Part shown: positions 1-64,000 of the stretch, in pieces
How the letters are laid out: each line of letters starts with the position of its first letter
Position numbering within the stretch: the first letter of the stretch is position 1
NCBI GenBank assembly: GCA_021647705.1
Contig: JAKIUF010000007.1
Location: 76,751 to 140,750, forward strand
Length of the DNA stretch: 64,000 bases
Origin: Gammaproteobacteria bacterium
GTDB taxonomy: Bacteria; Pseudomonadota; Gammaproteobacteria; SZUA-152
Direction: 5' to 3'
The notes under the pieces: model-generated
What the model was told of the DNA's origin: nothing
Seen by the model: only the letters and a program-made list of their open reading frames with translations
Databases searched by the model: none
Translations under genes and position numbers: made by a program

Positions 1-54
1 TGCTTTCGCCTGACGGACACTATTGGCTAATTTAGAACCCAGTTCTTTTGTCAT
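1..54 (-). CDS. mcdB: Probable carboxysome positioning protein McdB, N-terminal fragment (runs off window edge)
   Basis: ATG at 54 overlaps the mcdA stop (ATGA) and reads MTKELGSKLANSVRQAKA, open to position 1. Lies directly downstream of a ParA-type ATPase in a cso locus. Not in the ORF track. Confidence 0.7.
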   Translation of the reverse strand, partial: MTKELGSKLANSVRQAKA

Positions 55-689
55 GATGTCAATATCTCCTCGATGAGAAACTCCACTTCCTGAACCGCAG
101 ATTCCCCACGCTTCCCCATACAATATACACTTAAACCTTCTAAGGCTGAATTTCGATACACCGCACGCCTTCGCAAACAACTCTGTAGGGTGGGCATATC
201 AAATTCCGCCAATGCCTGGCTCATGCTTCTGGACATCGCACTCCGCAACTCTAACTGATTGATCAGTATATATGCCTGCAATCGGGAGTTGCTGATTTTA
301 ATCTGATCAATGGCATCCGTCAGCCGAACACTCGCCCACAAATCAACGGGGGAAGGCAATATTGGAACGAACACTTTATCGGAGATGCTCATTGCCGACT
401 GAGCAACCCCGGTTTCAAGCGTCGGCGGACAATCAATAACCAAATATTGATAATCCTGACGCATGCGGCTGACTTCTCTCGCCAGATTGCTCGCCACCGA
501 AATGACCGAAACAGGAAAAGGGCGCTCATCTGTCGATAATCCAGCCCACTGCCCAGCCGAGCCTTGCGGATCGGCATCAATAATGAGGGTTCGACCACGC
601 CGGGAAAACCCCGCAGCAAGATTCATACTGAGCGTCGTTTTACCCGTACCCCCTTTTTGATTCGCGACCGAAAAAACCTGCGCCAACAT
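51..689 (-). CDS. mcdA: ParA/MinD-family ATPase, carboxysome positioning McdA
   Basis: Deviant Walker A QKGGTGKTT, DADPQGS and VIDCPP motifs; 212 aa; carboxysome locus context. Confidence 0.85.
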   Translation of the reverse strand: MLAQVFSVANQKGGTGKTTLSMNLAAGFSRRGRTLIIDADPQGSAGQWAGLSTDERPFPVSVISVASNLAREVSRMRQDYQYLVIDCPPTLETGVAQSAMSISDKVFVPILPSPVDLWASVRLTDAIDQIKISNSRLQAYILINQLELRSAMSRSMSQALAEFDMPTLQSCLRRRAVYRNSALEGLSVYCMGKRGESAVQEVEFLIEEILTS

Positions 690-61104: not shown

Positions 61105-61593
61105 ATGCTTCCCCGCTTACCTGCACTTTCGGTCACTCTGCTCTTTTTCCTCACCTTGCCCGCTTTCGCCGTAGAACCTGCCCCCGACTTCACCCTGCCC
61201 ATTTTTCCTGACAACCATGAAATCAGCCTGAAAGACTTCAAGGGCCGCGTGGTATACCTGGATTTCTGGGCGACTTGGTGCCCACCCTGCCGCAAATCCT
61301 TCCCATGGATGGATGAAATGCATGAACGTTACAAAGATGAAGGATTGAGCATCATTGCCGTCAGTGTGGATAAAAAACGCGAGCAGATCGAGCAATTCAT
61401 CAACAGAATAGAACCCGCATTTATTATCGCCCACGACCCCACTGGCACCGTTGCCAAAACCTACCAACTACGTGCCATGCCCACTACATACCTGATCAAC
61501 AGAAACGGCCAGCTGGTAATGACCCACATGGGGTTTCGTTCCAAAGACACAGACAAACTGGAAGCGGCCATTCAATCTCTTCTGGAGGAATAA
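61105..61593 (+). CDS. TlpA-family thiol-disulfide oxidoreductase
   Basis: Signal peptide; DFWATWCPPC; cis-Pro MPTT. Confidence 0.93.
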   Translation: MLPRLPALSVTLLFFLTLPAFAVEPAPDFTLPIFPDNHEISLKDFKGRVVYLDFWATWCPPCRKSFPWMDEMHERYKDEGLSIIAVSVDKKREQIEQFINRIEPAFIIAHDPTGTVAKTYQLRAMPTTYLINRNGQLVMTHMGFRSKDTDKLEAAIQSLLEE

Positions 61594-61598
61594 CAGGC

Positions 61599-61817
61599 AT
61601 GGTAAAAACTGTTCTACTCTCAATGTGTATCAGCTTGGTGCTGAGCGCATGCAGCCTGGAACCGGTACAACCCTGGGACCGGGATTTGTTGGCCCAACAA
61701 AAAATGCAGCTAGTCGCGGACCCGCTAGAGATTTACCTTGATGAACATACCTATTTCAGTAAAGAAGCTTCCAGTGGTGGCCAAGGCGTAGGTGGTGGAG
61801 GCTGCGGATGCAACTGA
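61599..61817 (+). CDS. DUF4266 lipoprotein
   Basis: LSAC lipobox, VQPWDR..LA, and C-terminal KEASSGG..GGGCGCN. Confidence 0.9.
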   Translation: MVKTVLLSMCISLVLSACSLEPVQPWDRDLLAQQKMQLVADPLEIYLDEHTYFSKEASSGGQGVGGGGCGCN

Positions 61818-63148
61818 AAAAAACACAACAGGGTCCACGTCACATTCGCCGTCAACTGGCAGCGGCCACCTGCACTTTACTCGCCGGAGCCAGTCACGCA
61901 GGCGGCTTGATTGCTTCCGGTGATAACTGGACAATTGATTCTGCATTATTGATTTATACTGAAAAAGACCGTGTATCACTGGCGGAAGGCATACTGAGCA
62001 TCAGCAAGGAGATCGATGACGACGAATTTATTAATGCACGTATAGTGACGGATGTTTTAACCGGCTCCTCTCCGAATGGTGCGGTGCCTTCCAATACTGC
62101 ACAAACCTTTACCAATCCCTCGGGAAACTCAAGTTACACTGAAGCAGCAAACACCACACCGTTAAATCACACCTTCAAAGATCTCCGCAATGCGTTAAGT
62201 ATAGAATGGGATACCCCTTTAAGCAGAAGCCTGCGCGGTACCATCGGCGGCAACGTATCCCAGGAGTATGATTACCTGTCTACCGGAATATCCGCTTCCC
62301 TCGCGCAAGATATTAACCAGCGCAATACCACGCTCACTCTGGGCCTTTCTTTGAACAAAGACACCTGGGATCCGGTGGGTGGTGTTCCCGTCGGCTTTAC
62401 CGTTATGCCTGCTTTTCCTGCCAAAAAAGACATTGATGGCATCAAAACGGATAAAACCGTTAAAGAAATACTATTTGGTGTTACACAGGTCATCAACCGT
62501 CAGACAATAATGCAGATCAATTACAGCCGAGGTCAGAGTGATGGTTACCTCACTGATCCGTACAAAATTCTCAGCATACTGGAAAACGATGGCAGCGGAA
62601 ATTTACGCTCAAGCAATCCTTATGTTTACGAAAATCGCCCCGAGCAGCGAACCTATCAAAGCCTATATTGGAAAGGTGTGCATCAATTCCCCAATGAAAA
62701 TGTACTCAACGTGTCTTATCGGTATTTCTGGGATGACTGGGGGATTCAATCGCACACGGTGGATTTGCGTTATCGTTTTGATTTCGACGGTGGCCATTAT
62801 CTGCAACCACACCTGCGTTATTATCAACAGGGTGCCGCTGACTTTTACCGGCAAACACTTACCGATGGTGAAGAAAGCACATTGTCATATGCCAGCGCCG
62901 ATTACCGGCTGGGGGAATTCGTCACACAGACCATTGGCCTGAAATATGGCTTTGAATTCAAAAACGGTGCTGAAATCAATTTCCGTGCAGAAATGATCAC
63001 GCAAAAAGGTAAAGACCGCAGTGCAGATGCGGTGGGTATATTACAAAACCAGCAACTGTTCCCGGATAACGAGGCTTATCTTTTGCAGGGTGGGCTGTCG
63101 CTGGATTCCGATATGGTGATTAAATACATCATGCGTTTTTTCAAATAA
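61808..63148 (+). CDS. DUF3570 outer-membrane beta-barrel protein
   Basis: DVLTGSSPNGA, GYLTDPYK, YRYFWDDWGI, RYYQQ and SADYRL motifs; overlaps DUF4266. Confidence 0.88.
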   Translation: MQLKKTQQGPRHIRRQLAAATCTLLAGASHAGGLIASGDNWTIDSALLIYTEKDRVSLAEGILSISKEIDDDEFINARIVTDVLTGSSPNGAVPSNTAQTFTNPSGNSSYTEAANTTPLNHTFKDLRNALSIEWDTPLSRSLRGTIGGNVSQEYDYLSTGISASLAQDINQRNTTLTLGLSLNKDTWDPVGGVPVGFTVMPAFPAKKDIDGIKTDKTVKEILFGVTQVINRQTIMQINYSRGQSDGYLTDPYKILSILENDGSGNLRSSNPYVYENRPEQRTYQSLYWKGVHQFPNENVLNVSYRYFWDDWGIQSHTVDLRYRFDFDGGHYLQPHLRYYQQGAADFYRQTLTDGEESTLSYASADYRLGEFVTQTIGLKYGFEFKNGAEINFRAEMITQKGKDRSADAVGILQNQQLFPDNEAYLLQGGLSLDSDMVIKYIMRFFK

Positions 63149-63397: not shown

Positions 63398-63435
63398 TAA
63401 AGCGGTGCTTCGTTTGTCGCCGAAGCGCCGCTTTA
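63398..63435. terminator. Bidirectional terminator-like hairpin
   Basis: TAAAGCGGTGCTTCG..CGAAGCGCCGCTTTA between convergent genes. Confidence 0.6.
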
Positions 63436-63446
63436 GGCTCTCCAAT

Positions 63447-64000
63447 TTACTGCGTTGTAAAAGTTCTCACTTCACTTTCTGTTGTTAATTTTCCATCACT
63501 GGCGACCACTTTCCAGTAGTAGGTTGTACCCGCTTTAAGCCCGGATTCCTGATGGGACAAAACAACATTACCACCACCGCCACCACTGCCACCACCACAT
63601 GCGCTCAGCACAAGACCGGCGGCGAGCATGAGCATGAGCGCGGGAGTTTTCCGTTTCAGCCCGCCCATGCAGGCAATGCCTAAAATAAACAAACCATTGC
63701 CAAAAGACGCAAGCTGCGTGAGCCCTATTATCGCGGCTGCCACAACTGTCGTCGTGCCGCAATCTGTGCCCACAAATGTGTCGTTATCACAAATGAAGAA
63801 GTCATATGTCATGGCATTTCCATTGGCGTCCGTACTGGCGTTCCATTGGAAATCGACCGTCGTACCGAGGCCCGTTTGTCCATTGTCGGGCGAAATGAGG
63901 ATCGGCGCACTGGGTGGGGCATTAAAATCACCCACGGCGAGTGGATCGACAATGATACCGTTGGCAACACCGTCCAAATCGAAAGCACCGCCATCGGTCA
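63447..64000 (-). CDS. C-terminal part of a surface protein: choice-of-anchor-U-like motif followed by an FN3-like domain interrupted by a hydrophobic hairpin/lipobox
   Basis: Frame open to the window edge (TDGGAFDLDGVANGIIVDP). FN3 halves APILISP..W..STD..TY and LKAGTTYYWKV..SE..TFTT. Confidence 0.75.
   Translation of the reverse strand, partial: TDGGAFDLDGVANGIIVDPLAVGDFNAPPSAPILISPDNGQTGLGTTVDFQWNASTDANGNAMTYDFFICDNDTFVGTDCGTTTVVAAAIIGLTQLASFGNGLFILGIACMGGLKRKTPALMLMLAAGLVLSACGGGSGGGGGNVVLSHQESGLKAGTTYYWKVVASDGKLTTESEVRTFTTQ

Follow-up and report, generated by a model that had tools for sequence, protein, structure and literature searches.

Large enzymes and adhesins secreted by Gram-negative bacteria are retained at the cell surface by a few known tags (LPXTG, PEP-CTERM, GlyGly-CTERM and MYXO-CTERM), each with its own sorting enzyme, and the choice-of-anchor domains of NCBIfam are so called for the varied C-terminal sorting tags that they precede. 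Here we analyse a candidate anchor of a different build, the C-terminal tail of a 989-residue protein encoded at the end of a 64,000-nucleotide stretch of DNA from a gammaproteobacterium (hereafter the window; G000:C45:76751-140750), where one FN3-like domain is predicted to be split by a cassette that consists of a hydrophobic helix, a basic loop and a complete lipoprotein signal.

MYXO-CTERM and JDVT-CTERM tags carry an invariant Cys that lies at the outer face of the inner membrane and is proposed to be lipidated, with Lgt as the leading candidate, after which a CPBP-type protease removes the helix and leaves a C-terminal lipid anchor for type II surface display (PMC11980579; 10.1101/2023.06.07.544157); the MYXO-CTERM-type tag is portrayed there as free of a lipobox and inverted in topology relative to lipoproteins (PMC11980579). 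The GlyGly-CTERM tag, as described for VesB of Vibrio cholerae, undergoes cleavage by rhombosortase and attachment to a lipid-like moiety that contains glycerophosphoethanolamine, again for type II surface display (PMC6219818). NCBIfam release 20.0 (June 2026) additionally holds the model NF058595.1 ("invert_tail", lipo-invert putative C-terminal anchoring domain), with 113 positions and a cut-off of 37 bits.

The tail is encoded on the minus strand of the window (63447-64000), in a frame (63447..63998) that is open at its 5' end and covers the last 183 residues of the protein; the complete gene, an open reading frame (ORF) of 989 codons, extends past the window (L003:398-3367, minus strand). 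Taken in the direction of translation, the tail (residues 832-989, the extreme C-terminus) starts with the first half of the FN3-like domain (residues 832-892; 63741..63923), for which AlphaFold2 predicts five strands (tail residues 12-15, 20-23, 27-32, 43-49 and 60-65) at a predicted local distance difference test score (pLDDT) of 86-98 and which contains Cys876 and Cys886, a CxxxxxxxxxC pair at least 90% conserved in our alignment A1 of 25 tails (C49 and C59). It continues with a hydrophobic, Gly-rich helix of 28 residues (helix 1; residues 893-920, AAAIIGLTQLASFGNGLFILGIACMGGL; 63657..63740) that would act as a stop-transfer segment from periplasm to cytoplasm, a basic loop KRK (residues 921-923; 63648..63656) that would be both a cytoplasmic turn and the n-region of a lipoprotein signal, and an h-region with lipobox (residues 924-939, TPALMLMLAAGLVLSA; 63600..63647) that fits the lipoprotein rule. 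The lipobox Cys940 (63597..63599; ACA on the plus strand, TGT on the minus strand), putatively the Lgt site and the new N-terminus after LspA cleavage, is followed by a Gly/Ser linker, GGGSGGGGG (residues 941-949; 63570..63596), and by the second half of the FN3-like domain (residues 950-989, TTYYWKV...FTTQ; 63450..63569), in which AlphaFold2 places the last three to four strands (tail residues 125-130, 138-146, 151-153 and 157-161; pLDDT 88-98), and the frame ends at the stop codon (63447..63449). There are 49 residues after Cys940 and about 66-69 after KRK. An earlier note on this DNA, made from its letters alone, had these peptides, their order and the codon of the Cys (63597-63599) right, all of them on the minus strand; two small corrections are that the frame is just the tail of a much longer gene and that 63930-63998 belongs to a choice-of-anchor U domain.

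Both halves belong to one domain. BLASTP aligns tail residues 3-161 to one uninterrupted 98-residue repeat of the database protein P0025 (26-123) and tail residues 5-162 to a single repeat of P0030 (461-556), the first half matching the first part of these repeats and the second half the remainder, and the intervening ~62 residues are therefore an insertion in one loop. AlphaFold2, run on a 25-row alignment, reached a pLDDT of 86-98 for tail residues 1-60 and of 88-98 for 121-162, with values below 50 for 72-120; VIA-align superposes the model (range 4/5..162) on the FN3 domain 7y8h_A with a Z of 10.8 and a root-mean-square deviation (rmsd) of 2.2 over 88 of 92 residues, and on 9kvu with a Z of 10.5 and an rmsd of 2.1 over 91 of 94 residues, and its Foldseek matches, the best ones included, are FN3 domains throughout. 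The insertion lies between predicted strands 5 and 6, which we read as C' and E in FN3 naming. Pfam fn3 (PF00041) stays below its gathering threshold on the tail (12.5 vs 25 bits), as does Pur_ac_phosph_N (21 vs 30), and the fold is recognised by structure and via relatives that bear PF00041. Of 1.84 billion representative proteins, a profile built from the 25 tails matches 40,029 at E≤0.001, mostly multi-repeat proteins with uninterrupted FN3 domains, and its best 150 matches fall into two separate pieces (profile ~4-65 and ~126-171) within contiguous repeats; none of the 146 proteins newly listed by this search has the split cassette. As an estimate of family size we rejected the search, swamped as it is by uninterrupted repeats; it shows just that both halves make up one common repeat.

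The inserted signal is that of a lipoprotein in each of its parts. The stretch KRK / TPALMLMLAAGLV / LSAC passes a rule that asks for a charged n-region, an uncharged h-region and a lipobox [LVI][ASTVI][GAS]C; the same rule finds 297 N-terminal lipoprotein-type signals in the genome, and no other lipobox is as frequent among them as LSAC (27/297). The lipoprotein core pattern that we applied to tails and genome signals, modelled on PROSITE PS51257, fits 64 of 72 unique tails. Over these 72, collected with a looser pattern that mis-assigns a few Cys, L (38 tails) and F (14) prevail at position -3, S, A or G occupies position -1 in 68, and position +2 is G in 45, S in 13 and otherwise N, H, T, A, E or Q, never D; the median length of the uncharged stretch that leads up to the Cys is 17 residues, and the median net charge of the basic loop is +3. 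The enzymes that would act on such a signal, Lgt (TIGR00544, 261.7 bits) and LspA (TIGR00077, 134 bits), are both encoded in the genome above cut-off, together with a GspD secretin (598.8 bits). From these sequence marks, Cys940 is probably lipidated and the chain probably cut there by LspA.

That the module is real and conserved is, in our judgement, close to certain. Within its own genome it is unique: one of the 10,241 ORFs of at least 80 residues combines an uncharged helix, a basic loop and a lipobox in its last 150 residues, and it is this one, which also gives the only full-length match to the tail profile (187.3 bits, profile 5-171), and no paralogue of the whole tail was found there. 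A set of 60 relatives gave full-length matches at seven places, in six genomes that all belong to the window's own family. Beyond these, 59 database hits include 30 with the cassette (27 recognised by pattern, plus P0016, P0022, P0024 (FMSC)), the rest comprising seven high-coverage hits that on reading are uninterrupted repeat proteins and 22 low-coverage ones checked by pattern alone. Of 78 named genome loci, the pattern picks out 29 (31 ORFs), and seven further loci were added by eye. The bearers come from Nitrospirota (including Thermodesulfovibrionia), Desulfuromonadales, Gamma-, Beta- and Alphaproteobacteria and SAR324, with single records labelled Myxococcota, Spirochaetota and Deferrimicrobiota, and all of these labels are diderm lineages. 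The lipobox Cys, on whose conservation the earlier note had made its reading depend, is invariant in 25 of 25 aligned tails (A1) and in 13 of 13 in a second alignment (A2); W31, Y139 and W141 are likewise invariant in the 25-tail alignment, and one Gly of helix 1 is at least 90% conserved. The same note had suggested looking for the module behind different N-termini, and many distinct passengers did emerge: choice-of-anchor U, D and Q, CSLREA, delta-60, tandem-95, YD/OmpL47, FG-GAP and PKD, with the module forming the very end of the protein in every case. A signal-peptide-like start is present in about 21 of 30 tail proteins (22 are positive by rule, of which P0021 is false by eye), and the remainder look truncated.

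Several members of this set stand out. A Desulfuromonadales clade (L059, L065, L068, L073, L081 and L106) encodes short proteins (~290 residues) that comprise hardly more than one domain and the split FN3, and the genes have kept the same neighbours, which encode a Crp/Fnr-type regulator, triosephosphate isomerase and histidine kinases. Broken copies that need frame changes are a second tail gene at L050:2400-3730 and L057:6001-6515, both from one long-read-type metagenome-assembled genome (MAG) and possibly the result of sequencing errors, and L062:5944-6348 is a tail remnant without the first strands. The metagenomic protein P0026 (398 residues) has a lipoprotein-type signal at its N-terminus too (MKKYILFISVLFLLSC) and may be lipidated at both ends. 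In a quick tree of 44 tails, 27 of 41 inner branches are unresolved and the tails of the window's family are scattered among other phyla; the pairing of a Dongiaceae tail with a Nitrospirota tail (Shimodaira-Hasegawa-like approximate likelihood ratio test 98) is a hint of tail exchange too weak to build on.

The catalogue already has a place for such tails. NF058595 scores 18.2 bits on the 183-residue fragment (residues 101-177, profile 34-108) and 15.6 bits on the whole protein, and it matches all seven relatives' tails at 13.4-30 bits and 10 of 23 database tails at 23.3-32.3 bits (E≤1e-4), each of them under the cut-off. The only tail that we saw pass, at 39.4 bits, is that of L106, a Geopsychrobacteraceae MAG. 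In A2 it is 35% identical to our tail, aligned over both halves and the cassette, and the W, Y, Cys and YYW positions are invariant; tblastn leads from our tail to it at E 3e-6 over residues 11-161; and in its model, which has a Z of 9.6-10.1 against single FN3 domains, the FN3 halves have a pLDDT above 90 and two helices span residues 64-82 and 91-103, the second directly before Cys105. Because this homologous tail passes the cut-off and aligns end to end, we file ours under the NF058595 kind, of whose model we go by name, length and cut-off alone, and regard it as very likely a divergent, sub-threshold member. It resembles that kind in its extreme C-terminal position and in the succession of hydrophobic helix, basic loop, lipoprotein-type helix with Cys and short beta part, and differs from it in its FN3 repeat, which is of the "TTYYWKV" type seen in Nitrospirota, Desulfuromonadales and Pseudomonadota. 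The mechanism was therefore not undescribed, as the earlier note had it: NF058595 models this kind, falling under its cut-off on our tail and rising over it on the full-length homologue L106. Elsewhere in the genome the model has 41 weak matches to signal-peptide-like stretches, and it also matches under cut-off in 14 of 14 control genomes.

The company that the tail keeps points to an anchoring role. In most of 38 further proteins with this choice-of-anchor U region, the region is followed at a short distance, by eye, by a stretch of Gly and Ser, a hydrophobic helix and an Arg-rich terminus. Two of eight choice-of-anchor U proteins scanned pass the JDVT-CTERM model (P0206 and P0225) and a third falls short by 0.5 bit, and the split FN3 follows choice-of-anchor U only in this protein and its close relatives P0002-P0004. 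Homologous passengers thus carry JDVT-CTERM or GlyGly-like tags in place of this tail, and such an exchange speaks for equivalent roles.

How a signal near the end of an exported protein could be used is best followed along the chain. Sec would export the passenger until helix 1 stops the transfer and KRK stays in the cytoplasm; helix 2 would then re-insert like an ordinary signal peptide, bringing the lipobox Cys and the last FN3 strands into the periplasm, where both FN3 halves could fold into one sandwich. With its topology inverted by the second helix, the chain would become accessible near its C-terminus to the housekeeping lipoprotein enzymes, and we understand the name "lipo-invert" in this sense, as a chain-turning second helix that solves the topology problem with housekeeping enzymes. 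Lgt would add diacylglycerol to Cys940, LspA would cut between Ala939 and Cys940, and the resulting 49-residue lipopeptide, its strands integral to the sandwich, would tie the passenger, a large fragment of 939 residues (~916 if cleavage after residue 23 takes off an N-terminal signal peptide), to lipid. We judge this whole sequence, from lipidation and cleavage at Cys940 through completion of the FN3 fold by the lipopeptide to the tethering of the passenger, to have slightly better than even chances. The lipidation model requires no dedicated enzyme, and none recurs: we found no recurrent dedicated protease or transferase beside 35 tail genes, whose recurrent neighbours are histidine kinases and response regulators (10 loci), Crp/Fnr-type regulators (6), ABC ATPases (4) and triosephosphate isomerase (4, in one clade).

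Whether the two fragments stay together through their shared fold we put at even chances. When residues 1-72 and 113-162 are modelled as separate chains, the pair scores 0.51, against 0.01 for the best of three controls, at a mark passed by 116 of 157 solved complexes and by 2 of 215 mismatched pairs, with a contact agreement between runs of at least 94% and a partner pLDDT of at least 71; just 18 of the 157 complexes, and both of the passing mismatches, passed with a score of 0.60 or less. The halves being one known fold, the pass may mirror their likeness to solved FN3 structures. The single beta-sandwich that the earlier note expected of the two halves is what AlphaFold2, VIA-align and Foldseek predict for the intact chain, with weak support for separate chains.

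A number of observations weigh against lipidation with tethering by complementation. Taken by itself the two-chain prediction lends it weak support, and the two-helix insert is modelled in this protein at a pLDDT below 50. The tail lies below the curated cut-off of NF058595, which none of 31 scanned tails passes (this one, the seven of relatives and the 23 from databases), and our literature searches for lipo-invert, NF058595 or an internal lipobox found neither a paper nor an experiment on any member. A naturally split form, that is, a stand-alone mini-lipoprotein, did not emerge from a low-sensitivity search with a 69-residue query (lengths 37-121), where none of nine candidates reached E≤0.01. 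The Methyloglobulus sp. MAG L044 (2956-3444) has both helices with KKRHD between them and no Cys at the place of the lipobox (…VAYLFGQSG…), the only Cys-less cassette seen; this copy has either decayed or shows that the hairpin suffices by itself. A further objection concerns topology: judging by the order of its segments, the large fragment would keep helix 1, KRK and the signal helix after LspA cleavage and so would stay in the inner membrane, and because it retains helix 1 the lipid would add nothing unless that helix were removed. The distance from the Cys to YYW, a median of 31 residues over the 72 tails, makes for a short linker, by these lengths too short for a lipopeptide moved to the outer membrane to remain attached to a fragment held in the inner one. 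Among the papers listed on lipobox, hairpin or signal peptidase II, none treats this layout, judged by title and opening of the abstract, and a search on choice-of-anchor with sorting signal gave one unrelated plant paper.

Helix 1 itself may offer a way out of this difficulty. Its Gly fraction over the 25 tails is 0.25, against 0.06 in helix 2, with the consensus AGxGxxGxGLxxFG; it is predicted as a helix in the homologous L106 tail, at low confidence in our own model, and is oddly Gly-rich and conserved for mere stop-transfer, which could reflect proteolysis at this place or close packing against another helix. If, after LspA, the chain were cut again, within helix 1 or ahead of it, the passenger would be released from the membrane and its one remaining tie would be the triacylated peptide of 49 residues with the last FN3 strands; as a lipoprotein, and with +2 never Asp in the 72 tails, the pair would leave the inner membrane, by Lol or type II secretion, for the outer membrane or the surface; we consider this extension possible at best and, on balance, unlikely.

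The strongest competitor of lipidation and complementation is a plain two-helix anchor in the inner membrane, a hairpin inserted in a loop of a functionally unsplit chain, with the Cys perhaps lipidated as an extra anchor or there for another purpose. That the passenger keeps helix 1 after any LspA cut speaks for it, as do the retention of both helices without the Cys in L044 and the prediction of the FN3 sandwich with an intact chain. However, a single C-terminal helix would suffice for that task, and the lipoprotein marks on helix 2 (the pattern in 64 of 72 tails, the Cys in 25 of 25, a Gly/Ser-rich stretch after it) are hard to explain without Lgt and LspA; moreover, the Cys-less exception is one tail set against 29 pattern-positive and seven by-eye named loci. 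We therefore hold the plain anchor to be rather improbable.

Still less probable is that helix 1 is a sorting signal cut by rhombosortase or a myxosortase-like MrtJ, with the lipoprotein part as an adaptor. Its Gly-rich helix followed by a basic cluster does recall GlyGly-CTERM (PMC6219818), the genome encodes both a rhombosortase (155.8 bits) and MrtJ (106.4 bits), and relatives of the passenger bear JDVT-CTERM. Yet rhombosortase is above cut-off in only two of five other tail-bearing genomes and in none of three Nitrospirota; within the window's family it occurs in four of six tail-positive genomes as opposed to 23 of 25 other relatives, and G006, which is tail-positive and 100% complete, lacks it. 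MrtJ, for its part, is separated by a single gene from a JDVT-CTERM client of its own on contig C6, no enzyme of either type recurs beside the 35 tail genes, and neither the GlyGly-CTERM nor the JDVT-CTERM model matches the tail at E≤1: the former is not among four families that do, a result weakened by short models and the HMMER filters, and for the latter (NF033191) the C6 protein alone passes in this genome (46.1 bits), with the C45 tail not among its three matches at that level. A link of the tail to rhombosortase was thus rejected on genome co-occurrence and one to MrtJ on the enzyme's having a client of its own.

At G000:C6 ~55800-64922 (L123:2-6923) a giant JDVT-CTERM protein (open frame of 2349 residues, tag 46.1 bits) is followed by a 498-residue ORF and then by MrtJ; the rhombosortase gene lies at G000:C55:10611-11069. 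With the split-FN3 tail, JDVT-CTERM and rhombosortase, one genome holds three kinds of C-terminal anchor.

An artefact, be it a frameshift, an assembly chimera or the accidental joining of a gene that ends in a membrane helix to a downstream lipoprotein gene, is next to impossible: the oddity of an internal signal peptide and the frameshifted (the second of L050, and L057) or remnant (L062) copies among relatives might suggest it, but contigs of four public runs from four studies (X1 possibly being the source of this DNA) span 63400-64000 in the same frame with 0-13 substitutions, dozens of proteins from several phyla share the layout and one FN3 fold needs both halves, so that the chance fusion or frameshift that the earlier note had named as its own refutation did not come true. 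The sole indel among the four runs is an in-frame deletion of three bases at 63580, in the Gly linker, in run X7. The DNA of the Gly linker and lipobox (63566-63598, GGTGGTGG-rich) recurs with 94% identity over 33 bases at G000:C78:1391-1423 and also attracts extra short contigs in metagenome runs.

At its other end the protein starts with MKQIKKTLLIALLFLLATSQVQA, which looks like a signal peptide both on inspection and under a rule for hydrophobic runs, and the protein would accordingly be Sec-exported. Residues 1-340 match no recognisable family and no solved structure; after them come PD40 (TolB-like propeller) repeats (PF07676, 74.8 bits, five stretches) and the choice-of-anchor U domain (NF041766, 93.6 bits; residues 739-829), whose start lies outside the window and whose end, residues 807-829 (63930..63998, minus strand), corresponds to profile positions 69-91. 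Directly 3' of the stop codon of the tail gene, at 63400-63437, we noticed by eye an inverted repeat (GCGGTGCTTCG ... CGAAGCGCCGC), and a terminator scan in this place by a rule requiring a T run gave none.

Convergent to the tail gene, on the plus strand (61105-63148), are genes for a TlpA-like redoxin (AhpC-TSA, 94.4 bits), a DUF4266 lipoprotein of 72 residues (lipobox LSAC, C-terminal GGGGCGCN) and a DUF3570 protein (438 bits). The segment 57877-60689 (minus strand) encodes an MscS-type channel and then a pair of MsrQ-like (Ferric_reduct) and MsrP-like (Oxidored_molyb) proteins, ordinary housekeeping genes. Outside the window, on the upstream side of the tail gene, lie the genes of a 402-residue lipoprotein (LSAC; L003:4049-5257, minus strand) with DUF5122/delta-60 propeller repeats, the same repeat that forms the passenger of the tail protein P0008, and, beyond it, a 332-residue ORF without a Pfam match (L003:5685-6683, minus strand), a putative REP-associated tyrosine transposase.

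To the catalogue entry these results add that the kind extends well under the NF058595 cut-off into the FN3-repeat type, which current annotation mostly misses (0 of the 31 tails scanned here are named by the model), that its passengers exchange tags, that no dedicated enzyme travels with it and that a Cys-less variant exists. The module is small (~160 residues) and, if lipidation and complementation are true, would be usable as a portable C-terminal lipid anchor.

Compared with the known systems, the tail shares with the GlyGly-CTERM tag a Gly-rich motif, a hydrophobic helix and a basic cluster late in a Sec-exported protein, in a genome that has both rhombosortase and GspD; unlike there, about 66-69 residues follow the basic cluster, and the tail does not co-occur with rhombosortase. 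With MYXO-CTERM/MrtX, JDVT-CTERM/MrtJ and the like it has in common the C-terminal position and the invariant Cys, and such tags occupy the place of the split FN3 in choice-of-anchor U homologues. However, they consist of one helix with the Cys before it, have no lipobox and depend on a dedicated CPBP-type protease, whereas the tail has two helices with the Cys after the second, a full lipobox, a folded domain around the cassette and no evident dedicated protease. In its n-region, h-region, lipobox and Gly/Ser tether it is indistinguishable from the N-terminal signals of ordinary lipoproteins in the same genome, which follow the Lgt, LspA and Lnt pathway, but its signal (residues 921-940 of 989) comes after an exported passenger and one membrane helix, and the mature product would be just 49 residues long with no domain of its own. 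Completion of a fold by a separate strand-bearing piece is known from donor-strand complementation in chaperone-usher pili and from split-protein complementation; as in the former, an Ig-like sandwich would be completed by non-contiguous strands, with the difference that the donor strand is one strand of another subunit, while the tail would contribute three to four strands of the same precursor, cut after folding. If it is read correctly, the tail achieves surface retention on a different principle from that of the sorting tags, by the general lipoprotein machinery and a split domain; and if a second cut in or before helix 1 does occur, it would be a sortase-free equivalent of GlyGly-, JDVT- and MYXO-CTERM, spread over at least five phyla and built from housekeeping enzymes and non-covalent complementation.

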